Assembly: GCA_041601615.1 (NCBI GenBank)
Contig: JBFIHX010000005.1
Coordinates: 40,774 to 104,773 of the forward strand
DNA from: Thermoplasmatota archaeon
GTDB lineage: Archaea; Thermoplasmatota; E2; JACPAO01; JAHFTW01
DNA length: 64,000 bases
Direction: 5' to 3'
Below the pieces are notes generated by a model. That model was not told the origin of the DNA, ran no database searches, and saw nothing but the letters and a program-made list of their open reading frames with translations. Positions 28,901 through 64,000 of this stretch are shown in pieces; position 1 is the first letter of the stretch, and every line of letters begins with the position of its first letter. The position numbers and the translations under genes were made by a program.

Positions 28901-31045
28901 CTCGCCAGTGGCTTGTCCGAGCGTGGCCGTGGGGTCGTCGGCGCCGGGCGCTACTTTTTGGGTGGGGACTGCTGCGAGCCCGAGGGTGACGATGGCGATG
29001 TCGTCGAGTTCGTTGCCGTTCGTGTCGCGGGCTTTCGTGACGTCGGTTTCTCGCACTTGGACACGGAAGTGGGGGCCCGTGTGGTCGTCGACGAGTTCCA
29101 GGGCTTGCCCTTGTTCGTGCATGAACAGGCGCCATTGTTGTTCGGTGTTCAGGCTCCATTGCTCGGGTTGGGCATTGAGAGCGGCGACTACTTGGGGTCG
29201 GCCGACCACGACGTATTGCAAGAAGCCGGTGGCTTCGCCGAGCCAGGCGTCGTATGGCGAGAACTGGATCTGATCGCCTCGGGAAAAGACGCTTGGAAGG
29301 GGAGCCGGCGCTAGGTCGTCGGAGTCTAGGTAGCCAACGCCGCGGGTCCAGGGAGCGCTCTCCATGGGTTCGGCTCGCAGCGCTAAGACACCCATCAATT
29401 CCTGGGCGTGCCAGGGGCGGGAGGCGGTGTGTACGGATTGGCGCAGGGTCGCAAACGCCTGGGCCACGCGCAGGGAGGCGCCCATGCTGTTGTCCATCAT
29501 CGTGGCGGAGCGGTCCATGGAGGGGGCGCCCGTGACGGAAATAGCGCCGGCGGCGTCGGTGTAGTCGCTGTCGAAGGGGGACGGGGAGGCCACGAAGTCG
29601 ATGCCGGTGCCGTGGATGGCGGCGCGGCGTGAGGGGCCCAGGCAGCTATCGATGTTGGTTCCGGCGCGGTCTCCTGCGGCCACAGTGACCACACCAGGAA
29701 TGTCGTTGATGCCCACCATGGTCATGAATTGGCCGGGGATGGTGGCGCATTCGTCGGCTGGGGCGATGAAAGCGACTCCGGCGTCTCCGAGGTTGCGCAC
29801 CGCCTTTTGCAGGTCTTCATCGAATGCGAGGTCGGCCAGATACGATTCGACTAGGGCTCGCAATCCAGGGGAAAGTGAGTCTTTCTTGGCCTTCAGAACA
29901 TCAGCAAGATCCTTTTCATTGGTGCCGCCGAATTGGAATCCGGTGCGCCAGACTTCCTCCAGAACACTAGTGACTCCGAGTTGCGCAAGTTCGTCTTGGT
30001 TCTGCCAGGTGTTGGAGCTACGCGGGTCGCCTCGGGCGTCCAGCATCGGGGTGTCGGCAAAATGGAACGCGGGTCGCAGACTGTTTTGGACATTGGCCGG
30101 CAGGTGGATGCTGCTGGGGAGTCCCCAGATTGCAACTTGGACGCCGTTTTGGAAGGCGCTTTTTGCGCTCAATTCGGCGTAGTCGAGGCCATTGCGGATG
30201 GCGTCCCGCTCCAGGGCTCCGGTTTGTTGGTCGATGGCGCCCACGAATAGGACTTGGAATCCGGCCTCGGAGAGGCTCTTGGCCAAGGCGTGTCCTACGA
30301 ATGTCAGCGGTTCGCCGAGGGCGGTTTTGTCGCCGCGGGATGCGAGGAACGTGCCGAATCCGCTCTTGTAATGGGGTAGGTAGGGAAGGGATTCTGGGTT
30401 GGCTAGCGTGATGCCGGCAAGGTCGTCTTCGTCCAGGAAATCACCGAACAACAGCACAATGGGTCGATCCTGCACGGCGCCGGCAAGGTGCTCTAGGGTG
30501 TCTACGGCTGCGTCGACGGGCGCGCCTTGATCCCGGGTCGAGGCGGTGGGGATCCATTCGAAACCAGTGGGGTTCCAGGTACGCTCATCCACTTCCTGTT
30601 GAACCTGCGCAAGCGAGGGAGCTTCGACCCACAGGGGGGTCATGGCGCGGTCCGAGGAGCCGTCGTTCCAATGCACTTCCAGAGCGAGGTAGTGAAGGCC
30701 CGGTGGCGTCGCGGTCCATGCAGCAACTTGCCCGCCGGGAATAGCTTCGCCGTCCACCGTCCAAGCCAGGGAACTGACGGAGTCGGCGGGGGATGGGTTG
30801 GCGCGAGCCGAAAAAACGGTCCCTTCTAGCCCCCAGCTTCGATCCACCGTAAATCGAGCCACATGCGGATCGCTTGCCACGTCTGACGCGGAAGGGGCCA
30901 GGTATGGAGCGTCGGCGCGGGATCCGGGCTCTGCCCCGGGCGCTTGCGCGATGGTCACCGTGGCGAACATGGGTAACACCATGGTCAAAACCAGCATGAT
31001 CGCAAGATTGGTTGCGGCACTCGTTCGGGGGGCGTTGTACTTCAT
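16907..31045 (-). CDS. Giant extracellular protein (about 4,712 aa) with a right-handed parallel beta-helix, many Ig/Big-like repeats and a C-terminal LamG/concanavalin-like region
   Basis: Uninterrupted 14.1-kb ORF. Signal peptide at ATG 31045 (MKYNAPRTSAATNLAIMLVLTMVLPMFATVTIAQA). Beta-helix repeats (...VRVRHCAFADQTLGILATGSDVRIHNTLFDRMLRSAAILHDSHGLVRDNTV...). No obvious C-terminal TM or PGF-CTERM anchor. Confidence 0.85.
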   Translation of the reverse strand: MKYNAPRTSAATNLAIMLVLTMVLPMFATVTIAQAPGAEPGSRADAPYLAPSASDVASDPHVARFTVDRSWGLEGTVFSARANPSPADSVSSLAWTVDGEAIPGGQVAAWTATPPGLHYLALEVHWNDGSSDRAMTPLWVEAPSLAQVQQEVDERTWNPTGFEWIPTASTRDQGAPVDAAVDTLEHLAGAVQDRPIVLLFGDFLDEDDLAGITLANPESLPYLPHYKSGFGTFLASRGDKTALGEPLTFVGHALAKSLSEAGFQVLFVGAIDQQTGALERDAIRNGLDYAELSAKSAFQNGVQVAIWGLPSSIHLPANVQNSLRPAFHFADTPMLDARGDPRSSNTWQNQDELAQLGVTSVLEEVWRTGFQFGGTNEKDLADVLKAKKDSLSPGLRALVESYLADLAFDEDLQKAVRNLGDAGVAFIAPADECATIPGQFMTMVGINDIPGVVTVAAGDRAGTNIDSCLGPSRRAAIHGTGIDFVASPSPFDSDYTDAAGAISVTGAPSMDRSATMMDNSMGASLRVAQAFATLRQSVHTASRPWHAQELMGVLALRAEPMESAPWTRGVGYLDSDDLAPAPLPSVFSRGDQIQFSPYDAWLGEATGFLQYVVVGRPQVVAALNAQPEQWSLNTEQQWRLFMHEQGQALELVDDHTGPHFRVQVRETDVTKARDTNGNELDDIAIVTLGLAAVPTQKVAPGADDPTATLGQATGESNPPSPWLLPGMYAGDITISTPNAASLRLPLSISVGTALDVHRFVAPDTPVPGTAVCLATPLNLKDLHEVRSTMMEINDHNVCAHWADTDAAGIARFHASLPLSYDIVPFFSPYFEEKTKDVSTPDASVSGGATNTMGPRAYPQRPDSIALTAPRGDLWQLAIETPSVDWQELLTTGVNVDPSEYQEIPLPMFQIDPNNLRLPEVSYPLPLVDPRLPSQDTSETPELLPTYPLVYYGIERSYPLATAVHWRYLDNMEGDHFASIPASITPSTVASLHQLPNPLYGLYGTPIPGLDGGLQTASPDRLPLALGTAQDTLKGSTGNDPPTALFARPGQTALPMRTGPAADSCDLGAGHGASASTVRNLLYSGNSAAHIDALLAAGTTDGIPDQLVLRMEPSNAAVLGLQPTLPACSKMYTFNVPQPNEETVMTHEFDAHLEAAILVVCIEVTEAECRIIVPTSDGDGVYILEKKPTDLPRDVSDRMFEDRNSTPVATSGTTIPGLSDPALGDTVSLSRSGHVLMQSRQRSHDRDHGFITYTIIPFGLTSSGFLDPLLAHLASIDALSDIRFDGSSSIGQASALDLVREAAEDQMLPLAYAQLDRPALALDAWGYRDSFVHEPLADSQDLPRVDASDANLAGERWAAADAYLAPIHPNVDRARFARGIAYWDTETQTPDVDAMSSAGYAWIQPEFFEANVQVWDDDKILDTAPGRLEVRSADGAMLVASEACARDLPSNALRCLDVLEEGTGWTSKADGSGAYDPNLGSTIIRPRDTGFVDGTASGWQADWAKHLATPLFATATNYATAVAANPAVDANALEWFAPATVRVDRSYLSDMHQDTSFLLGTHHRTCEERHSDSQVPWNLESTPRWMTTCPWTSTGSNRWDQEIGTADTANDNLLWGSNNGGWTTLETGTNVTWTRDGVRCQTAPWETFTASTTASQRIAAIEAYYAARGATVHNVSAFQDPLPTGTNCGDTNGWHYQLEATMDFHGPRQALWNDMGRTVHPLWHPGTFAVDLDNWIACKGGRPVNGAACNTNHPIEQAWSALAGTNHATTYQDETGTHALVVDGKALAMTVFGLGKGTPMTYKLDGTTHTLTTRDDRLQHVATVPVDYDPDSWFSSSGTHSEFEAFYRTQWMSGADDAELLEALRDVVALFAKNVRDHLEANPYWTNVAGQKVPHPAAAADSFRFDAGDLSALGHMGHEGRSVGAKDAAITSSQIYGRWNPDHLVRDETGTVQTTKTTTADGETCWIDPSTDHDTAPHLEREISHTLPWNGGPAGTLHNETRNGATGATPPTRVGLWCTNEYGQTVPARTERETLPMRLADTPRSNTPITPFLASRSITPAAPGLGLQGFDVRPLIEQTLLEIAGAADSIPRTDLNPVPVTAIKITPLNSSSQETPLGASPILPLAHIEIDADLALAGLVLAHEYDLPTGTHAQFMAQQGTGPWQPLAARAAPGFAGDSEGSRLAFLDVTHLAPQFQLATQLVGDDWANATWNIHRIMPTPVTSNGDPIRVAAYQGDLSTAPFLSDLTLTQLEFHTGPILLDQDLVIPAGDERTFTGVDFVASDCGGRTCTLQVQGILHLINATLAPAAGLNGFPVHVTGTLQGTGVRAQGLAAGIEVRGGTLDLADCWIVRPGHLGILAAHATVRVRHCAFADQTLGILATGSDVRIHNTLFDRMLRSAAILHDSHGLVRDNTVTEARQSGFSVTGLSGASDMLLWNNRITDTAVGIALEAVEDRIQTPNPFTPTTPAAARDRVQENTINAATTIRTGTFANPTQGNNTLLAALTAPGTSGGQTQALSHNGTPWQPTDIAALAATIAADGMIPASDVDLAAPADANVRLDIHTAATVQQVRLQGTFYNTSVDLPEATTLDALITALQALNTTDRTGLLGTPGRIATVEVQNPNGEATHNFQFTTGTESRVLWTVTHVDTGSGWQEAPAEQTKAASIHNTLQWPLVTQYAYLVRDLTFDTLDDLLVTAQNRSAATLHPGNLAGLPHTLLPDGTLAVHGNTSLIALGTDLEPGIRYEFATRTSTGQIDNQGLSSERLVKLPDVPEGVTIHIQGRAVDPTGTTGPWTGSRILVDRTRPVLELNAGCLSGSDAGIYYRSYDPRGNWGTDPAYRASGIAELQVLATGAISNQTYPLLNPTFNDQQNLWTLPPEAYVDGESYSIQGHIIDHAGHAAIASIQNVVVDTSGPRLLGLGSTEGLLPDPNSTTPSYLGTKDLAPDGSLQVQFLVDDRPIDAERTHNCGIEEATLEYRVSGAGIWRPLDHQSPTIGTATTVLTGTINSTVVQSVLGRHLEFRVWAKDRAGHQTENTTGRIIVDTEAPLPLNIHAGDFLCLGPNNNQPIEWGAKDWKPSGSASAYEPSGIKQARLIMVHLNRTMEVLATIHHTANELNLESHQFDALTRDQIAKTFLVVDAQDRAGNGMQYTPAYLQGLGATHFEALRQASYKIHFDNDAPQIRVNSNFNYGVGLWENYPNTHIPLPTNGQLPNKDLAFLYDLVEPAETCFVDQFRIHISDEGNYNQLANHTQNINDWSHAMQVKVPLLPSLVGNITAHIQVWDQANNTATKTVNLGDPDPNPPLLSPTLGPQGVCYRSGYGQFGYAMSDNQSPHYLNLREREQGLGGIWSLAQNNTIVDWSGDFPRIAAFHTPSGASRDVFYALRGADTAGNIATTNNSWGRASIDADAPELEWLQPTTTGFFDPTNGLQAQWQATDAALLHCNGVVSGSIHLTSPLGTTTAWNGSLSDTGLGAQAPPGEPFTLSHAELATYEGMPITFNGTVVDHAGWSTEQTIGPFIPDDTAPVIDPLPTLPLYTGPNGFLLAWTPIDPIPGPGRAASGIASSHAIASNGDPIFGGQTQAESGQPLMPPTTRSGATVNVSVQAIDNVTHETTYNLGSVQTDFDVPGYELIPKTTICSGPQTGPINVTYSGWDTGSGLDDLRLLRVLSNLAVEPVHSTTEPHYAPEWSENATIDPWQWGEDIYLLLVDGYDMVQNGEHWTQVQLQNMPEEERNILLSGATLVVVDRRHPLGNPLPGLDGFFREVGNNIQAMGEAIGYRPIIAAGQLVSGGCEAITFELFLQTTDGSDTEPIQTQSGNQTLTIHETIHLNDTKYTRFHGQEVQLVLHGQDGAGHTWTNHSSAFVIDLVAPAIQDPPSLPALIGAAGINQTWTALDDQGAVDTGITWNAIELRPDANSTPLITAGPGTLLDIPAELENQALQAYVRVLDGAANELEIYLGQVEGDRTAPLLDANSINYESGTVGIDYTLAERNPSHILVQRTSTSGTSNETWTHASRYEDTTPPTNELATYTLCPVDQAGNPGTCQVLEIFVNAELPSIGLLSPSFAGTTRLGSGDLGLPVSGHVASVSTPGTTIWSSETDPGVFTLALEITPPHPDATMDIQATSRLGPISFTSVGSNRYEATIDLDEDQQEEVTLLVTANNGRSTAWRHSFHFAKDGIQPQVAQMQPQGNAHNYYNGYGPDGTSQKLGYTYGGSLHTPLAAHSALLTVTQWSNPGTNPGSTEFLALEGDEGDIAHLRYASNTLTLTVGNQSIAIGNITLKSQWYRFDLIAADGRMEAFLDETYLGSLPLSGPIRLESTRVQSASAMWTAPKVSLLDSDLRNLLEDQPILGGDGWQPIGQGTLQDTNTLGTAGGPTYLSIQPDSGHTLAAKSPPVDLPSSSHLTFRIKAKPAIEDPVFTVRNDDGDMMVRARVRYSTLEVEEGNGNWTILSSVDSRWHRFDIFIRHGHALIQRDQLSSVWVPLHADGPAATVEAGGGANTVDIDRLRIDMDTSRHDHTFVQPLTAFGWSETGSGLKTYAGSGFLGNGYLQVTGATSPGGRTYASFPTTGLGSKYTVEAAFAIGDSLNKPEHQAILSGLKSDDAPRWAVTLGPSQEIDCDAGDWRVHLYNGNTRISEGGVCLKNEKEWHFVRVEVTSTSVAVTLDDDTNSTFTSSITTGSDKRIGVGDVFPSPDAGRSGRGVGWYDDVVAFKRQ

Positions 31046-31140
31046 GGGGACACCGGCCAAGAAACGCCCACCGGGGGCCCGACGCCGCGCATGCGCGATG
31101 GTCGAGACCAGAAGGCTACCGCAACATCCGGGGATGCTAC

Positions 31141-31553: not shown

Positions 31554-33755
31554 ATGGGACGCAAGGAAGACAACATCAAGAAGGCCACCGAGATCATGCA
31601 CAATCTCGACGGCATCCGCAACATCGCCATCGCGGCGCACATCGACCACGGCAAGACGACGTTCTCCGACAACCTGCTGGCTGGCGCCGGCATGATGTCG
31701 GCGGACCTTGCTGGTGAACAGCGAGCCCTCGACTTCGACGAAGAAGAGCAAGCCCGCGGCATCACCATCAACTCCGCGTCCGCCTCGATGGTGCACACCT
31801 ACGAAGGCAATGACTACCTCATCAACCTCATCGACACCCCCGGTCACGTTGACTTTGGTGGCGACGTAACCCGCGCCATGCGCGCCGTCGACGGCTGCAT
31901 CATCCTGGTGTGCGCCGTGGAAGGCCCCATGCCGCAAACCGAGACCGTGGTGCGCCAGGCCCTTCGTGAGAAGGTCCAGCCGACCCTCTTCATCAACAAG
32001 GTTGACCGCCTCATCAACGAGCTGAAGGTCACGCCTGCCCAGATGCAAGAGCGCTTCGTCAAGCACATCAACAAAGTCAACCAGCTCATCAACGCCAACC
32101 TCCCGAAGGAATTCAAGGGCAAGTGGGGCGTTCGCATCGAGGACGGCACCGTCATGTTCGGCAGTGCCTACCACAACTGGGGCATGTCCGTTCCCTACAT
32201 GCAAAAGCACAAGATCGGCTTCGCCCGCATCTTCGAACTTTGCCACGCCAACGACGAGAAGCAACTCGCCAAGGAATGCCCCATCGCCGATGTTGTACTG
32301 GACACCGTGGTTCGCTCCCTGCCGAGCCCCAAGGTCGCCCAAGAATACCGCATCCGCCACATCTGGCACGGCGACCAAGACAGCACCGCAGGCATCGACA
32401 TGCGCGAAGCCAAGAGCAAGGGTGTCACGACCTTCATGGTCACCAAGATCATGATGGACCCCCACGCTGGTGAAATCGCCGTCGGCCGCCTCTTCTCCGG
32501 CGCCCTGACCCGCGGAGACGAACTGTTCATCGCCGGTACCAAGACCAAGAACCGCGTCCAGCAAGTCGGCATGATGATCGGCGCCGACCGTGTGGCCGTC
32601 GACAAGATCACCGCCGGCAACATCGCCGCCGTCACCGGCCTGCGCGATGCCATGGCCGGTATGACCCTCACCAGCGACACCGAGATGGAGCCCTTCGAGC
32701 GCATCATCCACGTCAGTGACCCCGTCGTCACCGTCGCTGTGGAAGCCAAGAACATGCGCGACTTGCCCAAGCTCGTCGACACCCTGCGCAGTGTAGCCAA
32801 GGGTGATCCCAGCCTGGTCCTTTCGATCAACCAGGAAACTGGCGAGAACCTGATGAGTGGCATGGGTGAACTCCACTTGGAAATCATTCAGCACCGCATC
32901 GAGCGCGACTACAAACTGGAGATCATCTGCTCCACGCCCATCGTCGTGTACCGAGAGAGTGTCTCCGCTACCAGCCCATACCCCTTCGAAGGCAAGTCCC
33001 CCAACCGCCACAACCGGTTCTACATCACCGCCGAACCCCTAGACGAGGCGATTGTCAAGGGCCTGCACGACAACACCATCCCGAGCGAAGCCAAGAAGCA
33101 CGCCAAGGAAATCGAGTCGATCATGTACAACGAGTACGGCTGGGAGAAGGACATGGCCAAGAAGGTCAAGGCCATCGACGGCACCTGCATGCTCGTGGAC
33201 GCCACCAAGGGTATCCAGTACCTGCACGAGACCTTCGAACTGATCACGGAAGGCTGGAAGGAAGTCATCAAGGCCGGCCCCCGCGCCGGCGAACCGGTCC
33301 AAGGCGTCCTGTTCAAGCTGACCGACGCCAAGCTCCACGAGGACGCTGTCCACCGCGGCCCCGCGCAAGTGATTCCCGCCGTGCGCAACGCCACCTACGG
33401 CGCCATGACCACGGCCAAGTCCATCCTGATCGAACCCATGCAGAAGGCGGTCGTCACGACCCCCGACGACGTCATGGGCAACGCCACGCGCGAGTTCCAG
33501 AGCCGCCGCGGCCTCATCCAGGACATGCAACAGGAGGGTGATTCCACCACCATCACGGCCAAGACCCCGGTCGCCGAGATGTTCGGATTCGCCGGCGCCA
33601 TCCGCTCCGCAACGGGCGGCCGCGCCATCTGGTCCACGGAAAACCTAGGCTTCGAAGTGCTCGACATGGCCCTTCAGGACAAGGTCACGCGCCAAATCCG
33701 CGAACGCAAGGGCCTCAAGCCCGACCCGTACCCGCCTGAGTATTACGCTGAGTGA
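31554..33755 (+). CDS. fusA: Elongation factor 2 (aEF-2)
   Basis: GTP-binding motifs AHIDHGKTT, DTPGHVDF, NKVD. Full-length 733 aa archaeal EF-2. Confidence 0.95.
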   Translation: MGRKEDNIKKATEIMHNLDGIRNIAIAAHIDHGKTTFSDNLLAGAGMMSADLAGEQRALDFDEEEQARGITINSASASMVHTYEGNDYLINLIDTPGHVDFGGDVTRAMRAVDGCIILVCAVEGPMPQTETVVRQALREKVQPTLFINKVDRLINELKVTPAQMQERFVKHINKVNQLINANLPKEFKGKWGVRIEDGTVMFGSAYHNWGMSVPYMQKHKIGFARIFELCHANDEKQLAKECPIADVVLDTVVRSLPSPKVAQEYRIRHIWHGDQDSTAGIDMREAKSKGVTTFMVTKIMMDPHAGEIAVGRLFSGALTRGDELFIAGTKTKNRVQQVGMMIGADRVAVDKITAGNIAAVTGLRDAMAGMTLTSDTEMEPFERIIHVSDPVVTVAVEAKNMRDLPKLVDTLRSVAKGDPSLVLSINQETGENLMSGMGELHLEIIQHRIERDYKLEIICSTPIVVYRESVSATSPYPFEGKSPNRHNRFYITAEPLDEAIVKGLHDNTIPSEAKKHAKEIESIMYNEYGWEKDMAKKVKAIDGTCMLVDATKGIQYLHETFELITEGWKEVIKAGPRAGEPVQGVLFKLTDAKLHEDAVHRGPAQVIPAVRNATYGAMTTAKSILIEPMQKAVVTTPDDVMGNATREFQSRRGLIQDMQQEGDSTTITAKTPVAEMFGFAGAIRSATGGRAIWSTENLGFEVLDMALQDKVTRQIRERKGLKPDPYPPEYYAE

Positions 33756-33786
33756 GGGCGCAGCCCGAACGGGTGTAATACTCAGG
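33735..33786 (+). terminator. 12-bp stem hairpin formed by the fusA 3' end (cctgagtattac) and a downstream complement (gtaatactcagg)
   Basis: Arms at 33735-33746 and 33775-33786 are exactly complementary, with the loop containing the stop codon. Confidence 0.35.
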
Positions 33787-33829
33787 AGCGAGGCCCTCGG
33801 GCCGAGCGTCGCTGCGGCCCACTTGTGGG

Positions 33830-33859
33830 CCGTATGCGCCTGAGTATTACGCTGGGTAG
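33830..33859 (+). repeat. Echo copy of the fusA 3' end (encodes PYAPEYYAG*), about 75 nt after the true stop
   Basis: Real end ccgtacccgcctgagtattacgctgagtga versus echo ccgtatgcgcctgagtattacgctgggtag. The echo could also pair with the 33775-33786 arm. Confidence 0.55.
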
Positions 33860-40361: not shown

Positions 40362-41711
40362 ATGACGCTGCGAACGCTCGGCTGCGGAGAAGTCCAACCC
40401 GCGCACTACGGCACCGAACAGACCTTCGCTGGCTGGGTCCACACCCTACGCGCCAAGGGCAACATCGCCTTTTTGGAACTGCGCGACCAAACCGGCACCG
40501 TCCAGTTCGTGCTCCTGAAGAAAATGCTCGCCGAGAGCGCCCCCGGCCTCTTTGAAACCCTCACCGACGCCAGCGCCGAGAGTGCCGTGAGCATTACCGG
40601 CCTCGTCAAAGAATCAGACAAAGCCAAAGCCGGCTTCGAAGTTCTGCCCACCGCCGGCACCGTCCTCAACAAAGCCCAGACCCCGCTTCCCATGGCACTT
40701 TGGGACGAAGAAATCCACACCGGCCTCGACACCCGCCTCGACAACCGGTTCCTGGACCTGCGCGGCCCCCGCAGCGCCGCCATCTTCCGCATCCGCAGCG
40801 AAGTGCTGCGCGCCGGCCGTGAATACTTCCAGAGTCAAGGCTTCACCGAGATCACCACCAGCAACATCATCGCCGCAAGCAGCGAAGGCGGCACGGACAC
40901 CTACAAAGTGGACTGGTTTGGCAAGGAATGCTTCCTTTCGCAGTCGCCGCAACTCTACAAGCAAATGATGATGGCCAGCGGCCTCGACCGCGTCTACGAG
41001 ATCGCCCGCTACTTCCGCGCTGAAAAGCACAACACCGTGCGCCACCTCAACGAAAGCACCGCCTTCGACCTGGAACTCGCCTGGATTGAGTCGGAAGAAG
41101 ACGTGATGAAGATCATCGAAGGCCTCCTGCACCACATCTGGAAGGCCGTCGTCGAAAACTGCCCCCAGCACCTTGAAGCCCTCGGCGCCGATGTCCCCGT
41201 TCCCGCCCTGCCCTTCATGCGCGTCGCCTACGAAGACGCCCTCGCCATCATCAACGTCCGCGCCGGCGACCGCCTCCACGCGCCGCTTGCATTCGGCGAC
41301 GACATCGGCACCGAAGCCGAAAAAATCCTCGGCGAAGCGATGCGCGAAGACGGCCACGACTTCTACTTCATCACCAAGTGGCCCCTTGCCCCCAAACCGT
41401 TCTACGTCATGCCCGAGGACGGCACCCAAAACAGCCGACTCTCGCGCAGCTTCGACCTGGACTACCGAGGCGTGGAGCTCATCAGCGGCGCTCAACGCAT
41501 CCACGACCCCGAGTTGTTGGAACAAGGGATTGTGCGCTGGGGCCTGGATCCCAAAGACTTCGGGGATTACCTGGAGTCGTTCAAGTACGGCATGCCGCCG
41601 CACGGTGGATGTGGGATCGGCATCGAGCGGATTCTGATGCAGATGCTGGGCCTCAGCAACATACGCGAAGCCATTCTCTTCCCCCGCGACTTAGACCGCG
41701 TGACGCCGTAG
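40362..41711 (+). CDS. aspS: Aspartyl-tRNA synthetase, archaeal type
   Basis: N-terminal anticodon-binding OB fold and class II motifs (FRAEKHNT..., GGCGIGIERILM). Confidence 0.9.
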   Translation: MTLRTLGCGEVQPAHYGTEQTFAGWVHTLRAKGNIAFLELRDQTGTVQFVLLKKMLAESAPGLFETLTDASAESAVSITGLVKESDKAKAGFEVLPTAGTVLNKAQTPLPMALWDEEIHTGLDTRLDNRFLDLRGPRSAAIFRIRSEVLRAGREYFQSQGFTEITTSNIIAASSEGGTDTYKVDWFGKECFLSQSPQLYKQMMMASGLDRVYEIARYFRAEKHNTVRHLNESTAFDLELAWIESEEDVMKIIEGLLHHIWKAVVENCPQHLEALGADVPVPALPFMRVAYEDALAIINVRAGDRLHAPLAFGDDIGTEAEKILGEAMREDGHDFYFITKWPLAPKPFYVMPEDGTQNSRLSRSFDLDYRGVELISGAQRIHDPELLEQGIVRWGLDPKDFGDYLESFKYGMPPHGGCGIGIERILMQMLGLSNIREAILFPRDLDRVTP

Positions 41712-41794
41712 GCGTTGCGCGGTTTGCGGGGAAGGAAGGCTGAGCGGTTGCTGAGGGCCGGGAGCGAGTCGGCGGCGAAGCCGACGGCTGGCGA

Positions 41795-41860
41795 CTCGGG
41801 TTGCCGAATATACGCGAGGCGATCCTGTTTCCGAGGGATTTGGATCGGGTTACGCCGTAG
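41795..41860 (+). repeat. Echo copy of the last 22 codons of aspS (encodes LGLPNIREAILFPRDLDRVTP*), diverged almost only at synonymous third positions
   Basis: Real end is ctgggcctcagcaacatacgcgaagccattctcttcccccgcgacttagaccgcgtgacgccgtag (41646-41711). Echo is ctcgggttgccgaatatacgcgaggcgatcctgtttccgagggatttggatcgggttacgccgtag. 17 of 22 codons differ, with a single amino-acid change (S to P). Confidence 0.6.
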
Positions 41861-50270: not shown

Positions 50271-50382
50271 GCCCTCCAGCCCTCTCCCGCTTCCTCTCTC
50301 CATCTCCCTTTCGCCCGCTCCCGCCCCCTCCATCCATCTCCCTCCCTTTTGTCTCTGTGCTCCTGTCGCTCCGCGGTTTCGG
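50271..50382 (+). terminator. Long C/T-rich low-complexity tract after coxII
   Basis: gccctccagccctctcccgcttcctctctccatctccctttcgcccgctcccgccccctccatccatctccctcccttttgtctctgtgctcctgtcgctcc. Confidence 0.2.
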
Positions 50383-51151: not shown

Positions 51152-51161
51152 GCTGAATCAA

Positions 51162-51492
51162 AAAGGGTCAATCGTTCGGGCCGGGTCGCGCCTAGCCCGG
51201 ACGACCTGTGGCGTTAGAACCAGCTGCTTAGGTCTCGTTGGACTGCGATTTCCAGCGATTCAGAACGACCCCCAAAGGGGTCGATCGTTTGGGCCGGTTC
51301 GCGCCATGCGCGACCGACCTGTGGCGTTAGAACCAGCTGCTTAGGTCTCGTTGGACTGCGAGTTCCAGCGATTCAGAACGACCCCCAAAGGGGTCGATCG
51401 TTTGGGCCGGTTCGCGCTCTGCGCGACCGACCTGTGGCGTTAGAACCAGCTGCTTAGGTCTCGTTGGACTGCGAGTTCCAGCGAATCGAAGC
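51162..51492. repeat. Three tandem 113-bp units; the distal unit is the authentic polB 3' end (last 18 codons plus flank), so the polB 3' terminus is tandemly triplicated
   Basis: ttagaaccagctgcttaggtctcgttggactgcga(g/t)ttccagcga(a/t)t recurs at 51214, 51327 and 51440. Copies differ by a few SNPs, and each contains short GC-rich palindromes. Fills the whole regulator-polB intergenic space. Confidence 0.85.
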
Positions 51493-54406
51493 CAAAGGCT
51501 CCCTTCACGTAATTTTCAACCATTTCCTTGTACCATGCCCAGTCCACGGTGTGCTCCTGTTTGTGCTCGATGATGTAGTCCACGGGCCACATGTACTCAA
51601 TGGGCTTGATGCCGGACTTGCGGGGCTTCTTGATTTGAAGATTGTAGCCGCTCGTGGCAAGTTTTTGCTTGGTGTCCGTCTGTACTTTTGGATCGTGGTA
51701 CAGGGGCAGCGGGTCCTTGCAGATGACGAATTTGAATTTGCGGCCCTGTCGGATCGGCTCTCCCAGTAGGTGCTCGACGGCGATGGTGCGCACGGCGAAC
51801 GTGGAGAGGGTGCCGTCGGGGTTCGGCTTGTAGCTACGCACCGGTTGGACACTCTGGCGAAGCACCAGATCCTCCCATGGCGTCTCGTGGATGTGCACGC
51901 CGCTCATGACGTCCTTGGTGGCGCGCTTGATGGCGGTCTTCATGCGCTCGCGGGCGTCTTCTTCCTCGGTCCAACTGGACACTTCCAGGAGCGCCTTTTT
52001 CATGATGGGGTGCAGGAGTTTCTGGGCGAGCGGCGCCTTGTCGCTGCCCTTGAAGTTGTTGCCCTTGGTCTCCATCACCAACTCGTCGCCCTTGGTTTTG
52101 AACTTGAGGTAGTTCTTGTGGACGATGAACACCATAGCGTCGTACTGTTCCGCCTCCAACTCGAAGTCCTCGTAGTCGAGCTCCTTGCGCCAGCGTAGAT
52201 TCGCGGTCTCGACGGCCTTGAGCGCCTTATCTGGGAGTGTAATCCAGGAATCAGCGTCTGGTAGCTCGTCGGCGCCCACGGCGGCGGCCAAGTGCGGTAA
52301 ATTGCCGACGGATTTGCTGCATCCAAGGTAGATGCCATCCGTGTCGCCATACACCACTCGGATGCCTTCCTTCTCGAAGTCCTCGCGGGTCTCGTGCAGC
52401 ACTTTTTGGCCAATGGTGGTGATGTTGGCGCCGCCCCAGACGTTGAATTGACGGCACGAGACGTTGACTGCCACGAGAATGCCGTGGGTGCCAGCGTTGC
52501 GGGCGGCCTTGAGGCTCGCGTAGGTCATGTCGAGGATACGGATCTGGTCCTTGTCGGCGCCCGTGCGTTTGGCCTCGGCGCGGGCGTTCTTGACCTTCTG
52601 AATGGTGTCCAAAATCCCCGTCATGGCGGAGTTGACGAGGCCGTCTTCGGCGCGGTGCTTGACGCCGATCATCCAGCCACGGCCCCGCGTGAACGTCTCT
52701 GCGGGCAGGGGTCGGCGCACTTCGTAGCGACCCGATTCCGCAAAGCCAGGCTCCAAGTCCATGAGCCAAATCCAATCGTCCACTTTCTCGCCCTTGCGCG
52801 CCGGCTGCACGGTGTCGGCGGTGAGGTTCTGGGCCTTGAGGATCGTCGGATACATGGCGCCCACGTCTGCTTCGACGACGTGGAACCAGGGGACGAAGTG
52901 GCTCTGGAGGTCGCTGTCGGGCTTCAGCGTCAGGCCGCCGACGATGGCATAGCCGTGCGGGTTGTCCTTTCCGCCGTTGGAGCGGCTGATGACGCCCGGG
53001 TGCTCGACCCAGAACGGCATTTCGGGGCCCTGCTTGGCCACACGCAAGAACTCTTTCTCGGCAGCCTCGGGGCCTGCGGTGAGCACGGCCTGGGACACGT
53101 CTTCGCGGGTGGGAAAGTCGTCGTAGGGAATGGCGCGTTGGACGCTGCGAGCAATGCTCTGGGCGCGGCACGTGGCGGGCATGATGCGGCGCTGGCGGCG
53201 GGCACGCAGGAAGGCCATGTGGTCCCACATTTTCGTATTGCCACCGGTCAAGAGGCTGTCCAGGGGCATGTTGACGGTGAAGCCGAGCGGGAGCGCCTGG
53301 GTAAGGAGAATTTGCGTAATGCCGAGTTGCTCTTGCACGTCGTGCTTGTTGTACTGGAGTGTCTTGGCGTCGAGGCCCATGTTGGCGGCCTCCATGTAGA
53401 CGCGGCCCGGCACCTCGACGCCGAGCCAGGGAGCCAAGCCCTTGAGCGTGAAATCGTCATGGAAGAAGTAGAATTTGCGCGCCGCGTGGAATGTGTCCAG
53501 CGTCGTGGGGTGAAACACGCTGATGTCGCTGCTGCTTCCGAAGTGGAAGGAACGGTCTTTGCGGCTCCAGGTGTCCGTGAATTCGTTGAACCAGGACCGC
53601 ATGCCCTTGCTCAGGAACTCCTGCTTTTGGTCGCGGGCCAAGAACGACCCGATGCGGTTGCGGATTTGCAGGTTGTCGAAGCCCAGAACGTTGTGGCCCG
53701 CAATGATGTCGTGCGTCACCGATTTTTGGGTGAACTGCATCAAGTTGTCCAGTTCATCATCCTCGTTGTGCGCCACCAATTGGACGACTTCCTTGCCGAG
53801 GTAGTCTTGGTCCATGTCCGTGAGCCGGAAGTCGAATGCCTCCGTTTCCAAGTCCTTGCTTGCTTCGTACTTGACGTCGAAATCCGCGTACCCAATGACG
53901 TCGATGGGGATCTCCTTCTTGCCCGAGCCGTACTCCGTGGTCTCGATGTCGTACGTCAAAACGGAGAGCTGTGCCGGCTTGCCTTTCGTGTCCCAGAGCC
54001 ACCAGTCATGCTCGGCGCCAAGGTCTCCAAGGGCGCGCTCGATGTAGGGAATGTCGTGCTCGGCTGTGTAGAAGCCGTGGTCCCAGAACAAGCGGTCGGA
54101 CACTTCCGGCACCCAGTACGGCCGCTTGCAGGTGACGGGAATCACCTTGCGGCTGCGGTTGTGGTCCCAAAACGACTGGTATGAGAGCGGTTCGCCCACT
54201 TCCAAGACTTTCGACAGGTCCTCTGAGTTCGGGTCGCCGCCGCGAGCCTCATCCACTGCCGCAAGCAACCGAGTGCGAGCATCCGCGACCGATTCGTCGC
54301 CCCGGGGCCATGCCAGGAAGGCCGGCGCGTGCAGTCCCGCCAGGGGTTGCGGGTCCCGTCCCTGCCAAAACAGGTGGGTGTTGGAGGCGTTCAGCAGCGG
54401 CTGCAC
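51440..54406 (-). CDS. polB: DNA polymerase B (family B replicative polymerase, no intein)
   Basis: Exonuclease and polymerase motifs (...DVGAMYPTILK..., ...YGDTDGIYL...). 988 aa. GTG start at 54406. Confidence 0.9.
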   Translation of the reverse strand: MQPLLNASNTHLFWQGRDPQPLAGLHAPAFLAWPRGDESVADARTRLLAAVDEARGGDPNSEDLSKVLEVGEPLSYQSFWDHNRSRKVIPVTCKRPYWVPEVSDRLFWDHGFYTAEHDIPYIERALGDLGAEHDWWLWDTKGKPAQLSVLTYDIETTEYGSGKKEIPIDVIGYADFDVKYEASKDLETEAFDFRLTDMDQDYLGKEVVQLVAHNEDDELDNLMQFTQKSVTHDIIAGHNVLGFDNLQIRNRIGSFLARDQKQEFLSKGMRSWFNEFTDTWSRKDRSFHFGSSSDISVFHPTTLDTFHAARKFYFFHDDFTLKGLAPWLGVEVPGRVYMEAANMGLDAKTLQYNKHDVQEQLGITQILLTQALPLGFTVNMPLDSLLTGGNTKMWDHMAFLRARRQRRIMPATCRAQSIARSVQRAIPYDDFPTREDVSQAVLTAGPEAAEKEFLRVAKQGPEMPFWVEHPGVISRSNGGKDNPHGYAIVGGLTLKPDSDLQSHFVPWFHVVEADVGAMYPTILKAQNLTADTVQPARKGEKVDDWIWLMDLEPGFAESGRYEVRRPLPAETFTRGRGWMIGVKHRAEDGLVNSAMTGILDTIQKVKNARAEAKRTGADKDQIRILDMTYASLKAARNAGTHGILVAVNVSCRQFNVWGGANITTIGQKVLHETREDFEKEGIRVVYGDTDGIYLGCSKSVGNLPHLAAAVGADELPDADSWITLPDKALKAVETANLRWRKELDYEDFELEAEQYDAMVFIVHKNYLKFKTKGDELVMETKGNNFKGSDKAPLAQKLLHPIMKKALLEVSSWTEEEDARERMKTAIKRATKDVMSGVHIHETPWEDLVLRQSVQPVRSYKPNPDGTLSTFAVRTIAVEHLLGEPIRQGRKFKFVICKDPLPLYHDPKVQTDTKQKLATSGYNLQIKKPRKSGIKPIEYMWPVDYIIEHKQEHTVDWAWYKEMVENYVKGAFGFDSLELAVQRDLSSWF

Positions 54407-58298: not shown

Positions 58299-59375
58299 CT
58301 AATCAGCGAGGGCTTGCCGGAACACATCCTGCAAAAACCGCGTGCTGATGCGGTACTCGGCGCCTTTTTTGTCACCGCGTCGCTCCAAGAATCCGTCACT
58401 GGTCAGGGTCGCAAGCGCCTTGCTCATGCCGCTGCCGCTGTGGCCGCCGTCATTGGGAAAATCCCTGCGTGCAAACCAATCGCCGTCGCCACCGATGGCC
58501 CACAACGCCATGTTGCGCGCCGACTGGCTGTGCAGACCGTCTAGGTAGGGCTTGAGGTCGCCCAGATGGACCGCGTCCGTGTATGCCCGCTTCAGTTGCC
58601 GTGCGAAGTACCGGGTCCAGACGTGCCAGGTCCTGCCGTCATTCGTGCTGCGGATCGCGTCGTAATAACGCTCGCCGCTGCGAAAAAAGCGGGCGTCGAG
58701 CGGTACCAGGCCGATGTTCTGGAACCCCAGCCACTTCAGGACGTGCGCGTTCAGCAGACGCCCGATGCGCCCGTTGCCGTCGTGAAACGGATGGATGCCC
58801 TGAAACTCGGCAAAAAACATCGCCGCCACCGACACGGGCTCGCCCTTGTACTGATATGCTGCGAGCCACGCACACAGCGCGTCCAATTCCTGACGGGTGC
58901 GTTCCGGTGGAGTCGCCACGAAGGTCCATACACCCGGCATGGGCCCGACGCCGTTCTGGGCGACTTTGAGGCGGCCCGGGCCGAACTCGTCGTTCTGACC
59001 CGCGTAGATGCTCCCGTGCAGGGCACAGATCGAATCCGTCGTCAGGGGCGCAAGCTCACTGCGCTGGGTCTCGTGGATGTGCTGGTACTCACGGGCAAAC
59101 CGAAGGGTCTCCAGTTCTGACTGGGTCGTGGGGGTCGAGCCGTCGAAGATCTGCCTGGCCCTGCCAAAATCGATGAGCACGCCCTCCTGGCGCAAACTGC
59201 TGACCACATTGCGAAGACGCGCCATGGTGAGAACGGCCCGGTGCAGGTTCTGGCTCAATACGCCGTCGTCGAGCTTGCCATCCAGGCGCAGGCATTGCCG
59301 GCCTGGGCTGACCACCGCCACGTCTGAAGGAATGCGTGGGCGGAAGCCGTCGGAGGTGTCTGCCTTCACCTGCAC
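58299..59375 (-). CDS. Fic-family protein (AMPylator-like), with an N-terminal wHTH-like region
   Basis: Canonical Fic motif HPFHDGNGRIGR. Confidence 0.7.
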   Translation of the reverse strand: MQVKADTSDGFRPRIPSDVAVVSPGRQCLRLDGKLDDGVLSQNLHRAVLTMARLRNVVSSLRQEGVLIDFGRARQIFDGSTPTTQSELETLRFAREYQHIHETQRSELAPLTTDSICALHGSIYAGQNDEFGPGRLKVAQNGVGPMPGVWTFVATPPERTRQELDALCAWLAAYQYKGEPVSVAAMFFAEFQGIHPFHDGNGRIGRLLNAHVLKWLGFQNIGLVPLDARFFRSGERYYDAIRSTNDGRTWHVWTRYFARQLKRAYTDAVHLGDLKPYLDGLHSQSARNMALWAIGGDGDWFARRDFPNDGGHSGSGMSKALATLTSDGFLERRGDKKGAEYRISTRFLQDVFRQALAD

Positions 59376-59475
59376 GAAGATATGTATAAAATAAGCATAT
59401 CATAGCATTTGCGTATGGCCAGGCGCTTATGCTCCGGCGCAAACGCTCAAGTCCCGCCGCCCCGACTGACCCCTC

Positions 59476-59859
59476 ATGGACATCCCAATGGCCGGTGCTC
59501 CCGCCGCCGCCCCGACTGCCAACTTCGCCCTCACGCCCGAGCAAAAGCAGGAGTGGGACGACCTCATCGCCAGCAACGACCTCGTGTTGTTCATGAAGGG
59601 CACCCCGGACGCGCCCCAGTGTGGCTTCAGTGCCCGCGCCGCCGGCGTGCTGCAGCACCTGGAGCGCCCCTTTGCGCACGTGAACATGTTCGCGCAGCCG
59701 GACCCGCGACAAGCCATCCAAGCCATTGCCGAGTGGTCCCAATTCCCGACCCTTCCGCAGGTCTACGTCAAGGGTGAACTCATCGGCGGCAGCGACATTG
59801 CGTTGGAGATGTTGGAAAGCGGCGAACTGAGTGAGATGCTGGGCGAAGCCCAGGATTGA
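59476..59859 (+). CDS. Monothiol glutaredoxin (CGFS type, Grx4/GrxD-like)
   Basis: CGFS active site (GTPDAPQCGFSARAAGVL) and a conserved C-terminal helix. Confidence 0.8.
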   Translation: MDIPMAGAPAAAPTANFALTPEQKQEWDDLIASNDLVLFMKGTPDAPQCGFSARAAGVLQHLERPFAHVNMFAQPDPRQAIQAIAEWSQFPTLPQVYVKGELIGGSDIALEMLESGELSEMLGEAQD

Positions 59860-60044
59860 GCGAGGGAGCCGCTTTCTTTGCTGCTGTGCCGCCAGGTGCA
59901 GCACGCTGGAGAGTGGCGAACTGGAGGATGTGTTGGGCGAAGCCCAGGATTGAGCGAGGAAGCCGCTTTCTTTGCTGCTGTGCCGCCAGGTGCAGCACGC
60001 TGGAGAGTGGCGAGCTGGAGGATGTGCTGGGCGAAGCCAGCTAA
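59860..60044 (+). repeat. Two tandem copies of about 94 and 91 bp, each ending with an echo of the grx 3' end (LESGELEDVLGEAQD* and LESGELEDVLGEAS*)
   Basis: The gene end ...ttggaaagcggcgaactgagtgagatgctgggcgaagcccaggattga recurs as ...ctggagagtggcga(a/g)ctggaggatgtg(t/c)tgggcgaagcc(caggattga/agctaa) at the end of each unit. Confidence 0.8.
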
Positions 60045-61072: not shown

Positions 61073-64000
61073 ATGGTGGTGGGTCAACAGACTCGCAATG
61101 TCAGCAAGCTAGCCGTTCTCGGCATAGCTCTCCTCTTCGCACTCCCAGGAGTACAGGCCGTCGTCCCAGACGTCCCCGACGTCCCCGACGTCCTGGATTT
61201 GCAAGCAGGTACTGCAGGAGCAACCGGGGCCACGAGCCCCACATTCGGAGTCGCAGGCACGCCCGCCTTCGACCGCTACGCAGTCCCCAGCAACGTTTGG
61301 AGCTGGGACAACAGCGCCGAACCCACAGTAGGCATCTACTGGGACGACAACGGCCCCGACCCGCTCTACTTCAAGACGCTCTTCGGCGTTGGAAAAGCCG
61401 AATGGGACGACACCGTCTCGCCCCCCACCGTCCAATGGGAAGACTGGAGTCGGTTCATCGAAACCGCCAGCGGTGTCTTTGCCGACCCCATCCTCCACAC
61501 CGACGAAGTCACCGGACGCACCTGGGCCGGCCACTTCCGCCTCCCAACCCCCTGCGCCGACATGGCCTTCCGCGACCACGACTCCAGCAACCTCGACACC
61601 GACCTCGCGGGCTGGACCACCATGCCCGCCGTGTGCCAAGTAAGCGCAGGTGACCACGAAACCGTCGGCAGCGGCGCCTGGAGCAAAGATATTGACGTCT
61701 CCGCCGTCGCCACCTACGGCCGCGCCGTCTACTACTGCGCCCAATACCCCATCGTCAACTCCTGCACCGTCAGCTACGACGGCGGCCTCACCTGGCCCCA
61801 AATCACTTCGCGCCAAGTGACCGACGAATTCCCACTCCTCGCCTGCGCCGGCATCCACGGACACGTGCGCGTCAGCGAAGACGGCTACGCCGCCATCCCC
61901 CACCGCCAATGTGGCAGCCAAGCCGGATTCGCACTCAGCAAAAACAACGGCCTCACCTGGGCACCCCGCGACGTGCCCGGCACTGGCGCCATCGGCCACT
62001 TCGACCCCAGCATCAGCTTCAGCCGCAACGCCGACGCAGACGGTGACTACTGGACCTACTTCGCCGTCGCCAACCCCGGCGCCGTGCTTGTCGCCGCCAG
62101 CGACGACTACGGGCTCACCTGGAAGAACGGCGGCAGCGCCATCGACGTAGGCGCCTTCTACACCGGCCCCAACGGCGAAAAAATCACCCGCACCGAGTGG
62201 GTCGACATCCAAGCCGGCGACCACGACCGCGCCGCCATCAGCTTCCTAGCAAGCACCGACACCGAAAGTGTCGCCCACAACGGCTGCGGCATCAACACGG
62301 CCCAGAACAACATCGTCTGGAACTACTACGCCGGCTTCACCTTCGACGGCGGCGCCACGTGGGAAGTCACCAAGGCCAGCAACGACATTGTCCAACTTGG
62401 CCCCATCTACGACGGCGGCTTCGGCACCGGCGACGACTCCTGCCGCAACCTCCTCGACTTCAACGACATGGACATCGACTCCATGGGCCGCATGCACATC
62501 GGCTACGCCGACGGATGCCGCGACCCTTGCACCACGCAGGGCCAGAGCCGCCAAGACGACGGCGTCGTCCTGCGCCAATCCACCGGCCGCGGCGTCTTTG
62601 CCGCCTACGACGACAACACCCCCGTCGACACCGACGGCGATGGTATCCCGGACACCCTCGACAACTGTCCCCTCGTCCACAACCCGGACCAAACGGACTC
62701 GGACGGCGACGGCCTCGGCGACGCCTGTGACACCAACGAACCCGACGCAGACGGCGACGGCATCCCTGACGCCATCGACAACTGTCCCAACACGCCCAAC
62801 GCCGGCCAGGAAGACCTGGACAACGATGGCATCGGCAACGTGTGCGACAGCGACCGCGACGGCGACAACTACGACAACGGCAGCGACGCCTTCCCCGACG
62901 ACCCCACGGAATGGGCCGACTCGGACGGCGACGGCGTCGGCGACAACAGCGACACCTGCCCCGGCCATGATGACAACATCGATCTCAACAACAACGGCAT
63001 CCCAGACGGCTGCGACAGCGGACCCGACGACCCCGACCCCGCAACGCCCAACATGCAAAGCGGTGTCCCCAGCGTCTTCCAACCCGCCGCTGAGACTTTC
63101 GAGTACAAGAAAATCAACGTTCCCGCCGACGCCACGACCCTCACGGTCAAAATGACCGGGCCCGCCTGTGAAGCGGACGGATTCCTCTGTCTCGACCAAG
63201 ACTACGACATGTATGTCCGCGCCAACAGCAAGCCGGACCTCACCACCTACGACTGCCGGCCCTACAGCACCAGCAACCGCGAAAGCTGCACGATGAGCGT
63301 CTCCGATGCCTGGGTCTACGTCGGCGTCTACGCCTTCCAAGGAAACGGACCAGTCTCGGTCACCGCCACCCACGACGGCACCGGCGGCCAACCTCCCAAC
63401 GACGGCAAAACCACCTACTACTTCGACCGCGGCGACGGCGAAACAAGCACCGTCGGCAACACCGAAGTCATCCTCAGCAGCACCACCCTGCCGCTGAAAC
63501 TCGACGAGCCCTCCTTCAGTGACCCCGCCGTCATGTACATGCCCTTCGTGGACGGAACCACGTCGCCCAACGGCTTCTACGACCCCGCCCACTGGACCAG
63601 CACCGACGACGTCAGCCACACAACGGCCAATGTCACCGTCAACTGGTGGATGACTGCCCCCGCAAGCGGCCCCGGCTTCTTCGAGGATTTCGACGTCACC
63701 CTGTACCGCAACGGCGAACAAATCGCCAAAGCCGCAGCCGTTCGGTTCGCTGCCCGCACCGCAGCCGTACCCGAAGAATTCAGCGTCACCCTCAACAACG
63801 TGGCCGGCGGCACCGGTGTACTCGGTGTCCAAATCGACCCGATCAACGGCGCCAACCAACAGGACTACTTCCTGCTCTTTGACAGCGTTGCCTACCCCAG
63901 CCACATCGTTGTGGACGAAGGCGCTCCCGCCAACGACACGGACGGCGACGGCATCCCCGACCACCTCGACAACTGTCCGTACACGCCCAACCCGGGCCAA
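61073..64000 (+). CDS. Secreted BNR/Asp-box (sialidase-like beta-propeller) protein with thrombospondin type-3 Ca-binding repeats; 3'-truncated by window edge
   Basis: Signal peptide, Asp-box repeats (SYDGGLTW, SKNNGLTW, SDDYGLTW, TFDGGATW), then tandem DxDxDGxxDxxDNCP TSP3 repeats. The ORF has no stop before nt 64000, which is why it is absent from the track. Confidence 0.65.
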   Translation, partial: MVVGQQTRNVSKLAVLGIALLFALPGVQAVVPDVPDVPDVLDLQAGTAGATGATSPTFGVAGTPAFDRYAVPSNVWSWDNSAEPTVGIYWDDNGPDPLYFKTLFGVGKAEWDDTVSPPTVQWEDWSRFIETASGVFADPILHTDEVTGRTWAGHFRLPTPCADMAFRDHDSSNLDTDLAGWTTMPAVCQVSAGDHETVGSGAWSKDIDVSAVATYGRAVYYCAQYPIVNSCTVSYDGGLTWPQITSRQVTDEFPLLACAGIHGHVRVSEDGYAAIPHRQCGSQAGFALSKNNGLTWAPRDVPGTGAIGHFDPSISFSRNADADGDYWTYFAVANPGAVLVAASDDYGLTWKNGGSAIDVGAFYTGPNGEKITRTEWVDIQAGDHDRAAISFLASTDTESVAHNGCGINTAQNNIVWNYYAGFTFDGGATWEVTKASNDIVQLGPIYDGGFGTGDDSCRNLLDFNDMDIDSMGRMHIGYADGCRDPCTTQGQSRQDDGVVLRQSTGRGVFAAYDDNTPVDTDGDGIPDTLDNCPLVHNPDQTDSDGDGLGDACDTNEPDADGDGIPDAIDNCPNTPNAGQEDLDNDGIGNVCDSDRDGDNYDNGSDAFPDDPTEWADSDGDGVGDNSDTCPGHDDNIDLNNNGIPDGCDSGPDDPDPATPNMQSGVPSVFQPAAETFEYKKINVPADATTLTVKMTGPACEADGFLCLDQDYDMYVRANSKPDLTTYDCRPYSTSNRESCTMSVSDAWVYVGVYAFQGNGPVSVTATHDGTGGQPPNDGKTTYYFDRGDGETSTVGNTEVILSSTTLPLKLDEPSFSDPAVMYMPFVDGTTSPNGFYDPAHWTSTDDVSHTTANVTVNWWMTAPASGPGFFEDFDVTLYRNGEQIAKAAAVRFAARTAAVPEEFSVTLNNVAGGTGVLGVQIDPINGANQQDYFLLFDSVAYPSHIVVDEGAPANDTDGDGIPDHLDNCPYTPNPGQ

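Follow-up and report, generated by a model that had tools for sequence, protein, structure and literature searches.

Copies of gene ends downstream of the glutaredoxin gene and of four other genes in an uncultured Thermoplasmatota archaeon

The stretch of DNA analysed here (64 kb, hereafter the window) carries a gene for a CGFS monothiol glutaredoxin, grx, whose product matches Glutaredoxin PF00462 in Pfam (E 1.7e-11) and contains a PQCGFS motif in translation. Across the end of this gene, TRF run on the window reports a repeat at 59813-60038 with a period of 94, 2.4 copies, 92% matches and a score of 387. The initial annotation had described two extra copies re-encoding the last 15 or so grx codons, and both TRF and direct reading bear this out. 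The repeated unit of 94 nt consists of the last 15 codons, the stop and a 47-nt spacer, and 2.4 units fall within 59813-60044. The parts of the locus are listed below; we call the downstream copies of a gene end echoes.

59476-59859, + strand: grx, CGFS monothiol glutaredoxin gene, 127 aa, stop TGA at 59857-59859 (ORF list and Pfam)
59813-59859, + strand: copy A (c0), the functional grx tail, encoding LESGELSEMLGEAQD and the stop
59860-59906, + strand: spacer 1, 47 nt, with segment S1 and hairpin hp
59907-59953, + strand: echo c1 (copy 2), encoding LESGELEDVLGEAQD and a stop; the extra unit, missing from assembly L002
59954-60000, + strand: spacer 2, 47 nt, the same as spacer 1 except for A at 59960 (G/A)
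60001-60044, + strand: echo c2 (copy 3), encoding LESGELEDVLGEAS and the stop TAA; the echo shared with L002

Within c0, the segment GGAAAGCGGC (59814-59823) is complementary to the spacer, and a palindrome, CTGGGC-GAA-GCCCAG, occupies 59839-59853. In spacer 1, S1 (GCCGCTTTCT, 59868-59877) has its complement where the tail copies start, and hp (59882-59903) reads TGCTGTGCC-GCCA-GGTGCAGCA; this spacer also gives a weak terminator-like match, and the grx spacer has a T-rich run, TTTCTTT. Successive copies start 94 nt apart and the echo stops lie 94 and 185 nt beyond the gene stop, so the echoes are in frames +1 and +2. This agrees with the earlier argument that a period that is not a multiple of 3 cannot be a read-through extension, and the spacer that had been noted as common to the units is indeed shared, with one base different between the two 47-nt versions. 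Upstream, an AT-rich TATA-like stretch (about 59386-59396) lies in the intergenic region between grx and a divergent Fic-domain gene (58299-59375, - strand), which in the window lineage stands between bolA and grx; in relatives, bolA is directly upstream of grx (L001, L092 and L094-L096 compared).

The three copies of the tail differ from one another in a structured way. There are eight differences between c0 and c1, clustered at 59817-59839 (A/G, C/T, A/G, G/A, T/G, G/T, A/G and C/T), next to spacers that are nearly identical, and likewise 8-9 clustered positions separate c0 from c2, against a single one between the spacers. Since these c0/c1 mismatches are not confined to template-repeat adenines, a diversity-generating retroelement was considered and rejected. 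The middle copy is a mosaic, with a 5′ part like that of c2 and a 3′ end, CCCAGGATTGA, like that of c0, as would be expected if c2 and c0 had undergone unequal crossing-over or conversion inside the TGGGCGAAGCC block that they share. Unequal crossing-over is thus the best explanation for c1 as an extra copy.

An identical Grx protein is found on two other assemblies, L001 and L002. The NCBI MAG contig L002 holds c0, a spacer and c2, that is, one unit fewer than the window. In sample SRR29257386, Logan contigs break within the grx spacer (L001 ends and L178 starts there), which is the pattern given by an unresolved repeat, and a Logan contig from a different sample, L179, opens with GCGAGGAAGCC, the variant of the second spacer, and continues into c2, as in the window. 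In addition, c1 has a private base, T at 59933, and so could not have been assembled from the other two copies. Three independent assemblies hold the spacer-echo junction; the grx locus and at least the spacer-c2 junction are real, and L002 is either a collapsed assembly or a true variant with 1.4 copies. An assembly artefact, which had been proposed as the way in which the initial annotation might be refuted, is therefore contradicted by L002 and L179.

Relatives found by way of the Grx protein place the window in an uncultured Thermoplasmatota archaeon from sand or sediment metagenomes, and our comparison of the grx module covers six species, all represented by metagenome assemblies. An echo is present in L003 (Grx 93% identical to that of the window), L096 (78%), L009 (70%) and L095 (61%), and is present in decayed form in L094 (70%). 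No echo follows grx in L004-L008, L010, L092 and L097, nor at the grx loci of Poseidoniales; a metagenome scan returned one close relative, L097, which is without the module, the others being marine Poseidoniales and bacteria. In the aligned modules, the first codons of every echo are (L)E-S/N-G-E-L, and the c2 of the window is homologous to the echoes of L003, L009, L095 and L096. The base form in L002, L003, L009, L095 and L096 is A-spacer-A2, in which A2 is the echo, with no second spacer, which amounts to 1.5 units. Spacer similarity is above that of shuffles in several species pairs (z 7.8, 4.0, 3.8, 3.4 and 3.0). Judged from these alignments, the basic grx module, comprising the gene end, a structured spacer and one echo, is homologous in at least six species and has the same junction in them. 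The view implicit in the initial annotation, that of a tandem duplication, suits the extra unit c1 and fails for this base module; similarly, the description as a tandem array matches the 2.4 units of TRF and leaves out both the basic form of 1.5 units and a spacer structured with covarying helices.

The echo has remained ORF-like, with its frame and stop kept, in five of the six species, though the spacer has diverged almost to randomness, and this combination needs either frequent conversion or transfer, or selection on the echo. In some species the copies are homogenised: A and A2 show no difference over 71 nt in L009, only 3 nt separate them in L003 (94% identical), and there are species-specific changes common to the gene and its echo, such as LGEA in the window and a terminal LAEG in L003. 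Downstream of grx, no conserved terminator was found in these species, and the next genes differ between them.

A similar layout is seen at other gene ends in the same DNA. The whole window was covered with a scan anchored on stop codons and with a peptide self-comparison at every position and in every frame; each found out-of-frame peptide echoes at exactly five places, all of them gene 3′ ends, namely those of S7, EF-2, AspRS, PolB and Grx; the self-comparison found no echo at any 5′ end in the window, and it excludes a chance origin of the echoes. Apart from grx, the features are as follows.

10855-10996, + strand: ribosomal protein S7 tail module, with an inverted copy directly after the stop, a hairpin GAGTCGGC-ACC-GCCGACTC and the echo at 10961-10996
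33722-33859, + strand: EF-2 tail module, with a 15-bp stem formed by CCTGAGTATTACGCT (33735-33749) and 33771-33786, and the echo at 33830-33859
41646-41860, + strand: AspRS tail module, with tail A at 41646-41711, an inverted copy of about 48 nt at 41712-41760, a hairpin and the echo A2 at 41795-41860
51161-51499, - strand: polB tail array, a true tandem of 113 nt x 3.0, with a tail ending in ELAVQRDLSSWF and the stop, and a 68-nt spacer with two hairpins

The polB ORF lies at 51440-54406 (- strand) and the 113-nt array spans its stop at 51440; the earlier remark that grx follows the same pattern as polB was correct in this respect, TRF giving 3.0 units of 113 nt across the polB stop. From stop to stop, the echo offsets are 106 nt for S7, 104 for EF-2, 149 for AspRS, 113 for PolB and 94 for Grx. 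The gap between copies is 47 nt at grx and 41-94 nt elsewhere, and the offsets over all loci examined range from 82 to 149 nt. An inverted tail copy comes straight after the stop in S7, EF-2, AspRS and Grx, with the stop in or near the hairpin loop, and PolB is without such an anti-tail arm. In every window case a short GC hairpin directly precedes the echo, and T5 tracts are found beyond the last copy at EF-2 and polB. The S7 echo differs from the S7 tail at synonymous positions only, and the EF-2 echo is identical to the gene end exactly across the 17 nt that form the stem. There is no sequence common to the spacers of the five loci, except for the GAGTCGGC...GCCGACTC hairpin in S7 and AspRS. 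Two sources for the echoes were set aside on this material: a shared mobile element, because the spacers of the five loci are gene-specific, and cleavage of a cruciform at an old palindrome, because direct reading showed that the sequence following the echoes of S7 and AspRS is not complementary to them.

The same scan found no echoes in control loci, mostly bacterial, that total about 400 kb, where only REP-like intergenic repeats appeared. Relatives, on the other hand, also show the echo architecture, at S7, AspRS and another gene. For example, L004 has a tail echo after a 272-codon ORF that ends in SGQTGLGRFG (5072-5218), and L091 has an S7 tail echo, ending in ERVAKSAR, with a Ser codon changed from TCT to AGC (2706-2790); both have a GC hairpin before the echo. 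The AspRS orthologues of L084 (4903-5100) and L086 (11356-11480) have stop-centred palindromes, ACGCC-GTA-GGCGT and ACCCC-GTA-GGGGT respectively, and at these ends there are several short recurrences of the terminal RVTP, as well as mini-hairpins with a CCGTAGG loop. As a whole, these comparisons indicate that gene-tail echoes are a real and unusual habit of this lineage, and not a one-off or an artefact.

Several other features of the window may be mentioned here. A single ORF of 4717 aa (16907-31060, - strand) has 67% C at third positions and a very strong strand skew; a CT-rich, intergenic-looking stretch at 50272-50349 consists of imperfect 34-nt tandem repeats (TRF score 95); and a large ORF running off the window has repeated units of the DxDxDGxxDxxDNC type, like thrombospondin type 3 (62600-64000). 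The ORFs at 4700-6586 and 6747-8429 (- strand), with 26-28% C and 37-44% G at third positions, are unlike the rest of the window and are either foreign genes or spurious antisense ORFs.

The nature of the differences between a gene end and its echo bears on how the echoes arose, and AspRS is the most informative case. There, 21 of the 66 nt are different between A and A2, and 20 of these differences are synonymous, with one of 22 codons changing the amino acid, for which reason neutral decay of the AspRS echo was rejected. Compared with the gene end of the sister species L083, which has no module at AspRS, the echo shows 10 differences, all synonymous, and the present tail shows 13; the two are thus about equally near to orthologous gene ends, and both have the look of ends that were coding until recently. 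Moreover, the last 70 or so codons of the AspRS gene in the window (41500-41711) have a nucleotide identity to L083 of 0.78-0.82, against about 0.90 elsewhere in the gene, at about 97% amino acid identity, an excess of synonymous divergence, and no such drop at the 3′ end is seen between L083 and L084. This suggests that the 3′ segment of AspRS was imported by recombination and that the former tail was displaced. At grx, the echo of L096 encodes ESGELAEMLAE and a stop, the short C-terminus that is canonical in many relatives, the gene tail of L096 being extended. Ser codon switches occur in the echoes of L095 at grx and of L091 at S7 (AGC/TCC and TCT/AGC). Several echoes therefore look like genuine coding ends and not like decayed copies.

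It is unlikely that the echoes are translated, given the shifting offset and the frequency of intervening stops. Across species, the grx echo offset modulo 3 takes the values 1, 0, 2, 0 and 1, so that there is no conserved frame relation, and in-frame stops intervene before the echo at S7, EF-2 and AspRS in the window and at the grx of L003 and L096; a frameshift fusion was rejected on the same two grounds, stops in the echo frame and a non-conserved offset. In the window, the grx echo frame is open from 59831. In L095 (1869-1953), grx and its echo share a frame that has no stop between the TGA and the echo, so that read-through would append GRSRSRDSGPPGPDDESGELQEMLGGG, which is not the case in the other species.

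The grx spacer itself has a structure that covaries between species, as found with RNAalifold and explicit pair counts over six sequences. In hp, six of the eight pairs have compensatory changes on both sides; 85-88% of cells are paired, against 31-53% with slid partners, and none of 500 shuffles reached the observed score. The tail palindrome is 94% paired across species, reading CTGGCC-GAA-GGCCAG in L009 and CTAGCC-GAA-GGCTAG in L003; in the latter, the stem takes in the stop codon. In the consensus fold, a helix between S1 and A2 encloses hp. For the alternative helices S1:A2 and A:S1, 82% and 88% of cells are paired, with three and four double-change pairs, respectively (n = 6 sequences), and the differences between A and A2 in the S1-pairing segment of the window are transitions that keep G-U pairs. 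Among 84 Grx homologues, the extended C-termini are mostly of the complementary types LGEAQ, LAEGQ, LAEG and LTEGQ, and the non-complementary LGEGQ and LAEAQ do not occur; at the DNA level, the LTEGQ tail of L094 reads CTGACC-GAA-GGACAG, with one stem pair mismatched. The palindromic extension (LGEAQ, LAEGQ and terminal LAEG, with the DNA-level check) is a case in which nucleic acid structure shapes a protein tail.

Folding energies give a mixed picture. The minimum free energy of the region from -60 to +70 is -58 to -80 kcal/mol at the five echo-bearing ends, against -42 ± 6.7 in gene interiors, and -21 to -51 kcal/mol at the other 21 stops of the window. It is the total energy alone that separates these ends from interiors, since the number of base pairs spanning the stop does not (17.2 vs. 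17.6). An Rfam 15 scan of the whole window gave no match at the gathering score. Both Grx duplexes of S1, with A or with A2, lie within the background of random GC-rich partners, so thermodynamics alone give no support for a switch at grx. At EF-2, the A′:A2 and A:A′ duplexes (-37.5 vs. -26.9 kcal/mol) are both far beyond random partners, and at S7 and AspRS the A′:A2 duplex is no better than random partners. The grx spacer probably acts as a 3′-end RNA structure.

Considering all of this, we favour, at a probability of roughly 0.55, the explanation that the copies downstream of grx are former or duplicated 3′ ends of the gene, untranslated and kept alike by gene conversion or recombination, which would be tolerated because the ORF stays intact. 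In this view, a tail cassette, which comprises the last 15 or so codons, the stop and some 47 nt of hairpin-rich spacer, would stand before an older copy of the same codons; the ORF would therefore not be altered, and what was once the tail would remain in the 3′ UTR or in intergenic DNA. From the comparison of sequences, we infer a first step in which a local duplication with its junction just after a hairpin would give tail-spacer-tail, with hairpin-induced backward slippage or break repair as candidate mechanisms, the tandem form being exemplified by polB and by the extra grx unit of the window. In a second step, the direct repeats would interact: gene conversion would keep A2 like A, unequal crossing-over would have made c1 in the window strain, and recombination between A and A2 would delete the module, leading to a patchy distribution. 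Third, since the cassette is flanked by the gene body on the left and a copy of the gene end on the right, homologous recombination could move it between lineages, and the native tail of the recipient would remain as an echo, giving coding-like echoes such as the ESGELAEMLAE of L096 and that of AspRS. This third step would account for the 1.5-unit form, the constant junction, the patchiness, the coding-like echoes and the bias toward highly conserved genes. Finally, the spacer hairpins are probably selected as an mRNA 3′-end structure for termination or stability, with the echo as a passenger.

Several observations count against this explanation: every junction lies directly after a hairpin; an inverted tail copy is present at echo-bearing ends; the echo stays ORF-like next to a spacer that diverges; and the basic form of 1.5 units is not obtained from a single tandem duplication. 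Furthermore, the pairing of S1 with either A or A2, both with compensatory changes, and the identity of the EF-2 echo exactly over the stem are hints of a function.

In the literature, we found analogies only and no published description of the gene-tail echo pattern. With regard to the spacer, GC-rich hairpins directly after the stop, accompanied by a T-rich run, resemble prokaryotic 3′ stem-loops and terminator hairpins and archaeal U-tract/aCPSF1 termination (PMC8716108, PMC7515710). Unlike in terminator hairpins, one arm here is the coding tail, the stop lies in or near the loop and a direct echo accompanies the structure.

The hints of function can be turned into a different explanation, in which the 3′ UTR would hold a three-part RNA switch. 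S1 would pair either with the translated A or with A2, its untranslated mimic, and ribosome occupancy of the last codons would pick the structure and thereby affect the formation of the 3′ end, the stability of the mRNA or read-through to the following gene. We consider this doubtful, even though there is something to be said for it: the S1:A2 and A:S1 helices are equally supported by covariation, the A/A2 transitions in the window keep G-U pairs with S1, the EF-2 duplexes stand far above random partners with echo identity coinciding with the stem, and the module has persisted over six species. However, a copy of A pairs automatically with whatever is complementary to A, so dual pairing follows from the duplication history; moreover, the S7 and AspRS A′:A2 duplexes and both Grx duplexes do not exceed their backgrounds, an anti-tail arm is missing from PolB, no terminator is conserved downstream and the genes that follow vary by species. 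The closest parallel, that of trp-type leader-peptide attenuators, would consist in a translated segment, an anti-segment and a competing third segment, with both helices covarying. In contrast to those attenuators, the arrangement sits at the 3′ end of a full-length archaeal gene, a terminator partner was not identified and the third segment is a copy of the tail. A broader version, which we regard as about equally doubtful, would be an archaeal 3′-UTR device, new to description, in which the anti-tail pairs with the last codons or their mimic, sensing ribosomes in the stop region and setting 3′-end formation or stability, and which would spread as a cassette by homologous recombination with gene sequence on both sides.

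It is unlikely that the locus reflects merely a plain and recent tandem duplication by replication slippage, limited to this strain, neutral and transient. The 2.4 head-to-tail copies at 92% with a constant period of 94, the lack of c1 in L002 and the clean array of 3.0 whole units at polB are all as slippage would leave them, and for c1 alone it would be adequate. For the base module, it is largely refuted by cross-species homology: one junction is common to six species, c0 and c2 differ at 8-9 clustered positions when the spacers differ at one, the duplicated segment of the 1.5-unit form is not present twice in full, and the structure covaries between species. The comparison with stop-spanning tandem duplications and minisatellites, which arise by slippage or by flap- and hairpin-mediated events, runs the same way. 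The head-to-tail units, the difference in copy number between assemblies and the tolerance that comes from a first copy carrying the stop are alike, with polB as a clean example; the base form of 1.5 units, its retention across species and the coding-like divergence of the copies are not.

The 3′ end of icd in E. coli is duplicated at the attachment site of e14 and phage 21, and integrative elements of archaea target tRNA genes. One may therefore ask if the echoes are scars of site-specific integration, left by elements that target gene 3′ ends and bring a replacement tail, so that attL and attR would be versions of the tail that differ at synonymous sites. Directly repeated gene tails, the purely synonymous differences of the S7 echo, to which the AspRS echo can be added, and targets that are conserved housekeeping genes, including EF-2, are what such scars would look like, but the copies are separated by no more than 41-94 nt, which contain neither an integrase nor an element body, each gene has its own spacer, made in part of inverted tail sequence, and the spacing is equally short at all loci examined (offsets 82-149 nt), which makes this origin very unlikely. 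A related process is reported for T6SS effector genes of Vibrio cholerae, where genes are sequentially displaced by homology-facilitated illegitimate recombination (PMC5361080). Displaced 3′ fragments of both kinds, icd/e14 and T6SS effectors, are like the echoes in that an intact gene end is followed by a second, untranslated end downstream, and in that most differences in the downstream copy are synonymous, as it remained coding up to its displacement. They are unlike the echoes, whose copies are 41-94 nt apart with no element or gene in between, whose layout recurs at many housekeeping genes, and between whose copies lies a conserved hairpin structure with partial complementarity to the tail.

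The weakest proposals, an assembly artefact, as the difference in copy number among the metagenome assemblies of the grx locus (1.4 vs. 2.4) could suggest, and translated recoding by frameshift, read-through or ribosome hopping onto the echo, for which the open echo frame of the window and the in-frame echo of L095 could be cited, have almost nothing left to them given the three independent assemblies with the spacer-echo junction, the private base of c1, a frame offset that is not conserved and the stops that intervene in most species and genes.

For those who work with such genomes, the echo units call for care in annotation and assembly, since contigs are broken or collapsed there. If the echoes are by-products only, as in the explanation that we favour, they would mark an uncultured Thermoplasmatota lineage in which the ends of conserved genes repeatedly duplicate, invert and exchange, and they would offer a readable record of recombination and repair in organisms without genetics. 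If, instead, they are functional, they would represent a new coupling of translation to the behaviour of archaeal mRNA 3′ ends, in a domain in which termination and 3′-UTR regulation are poorly understood.
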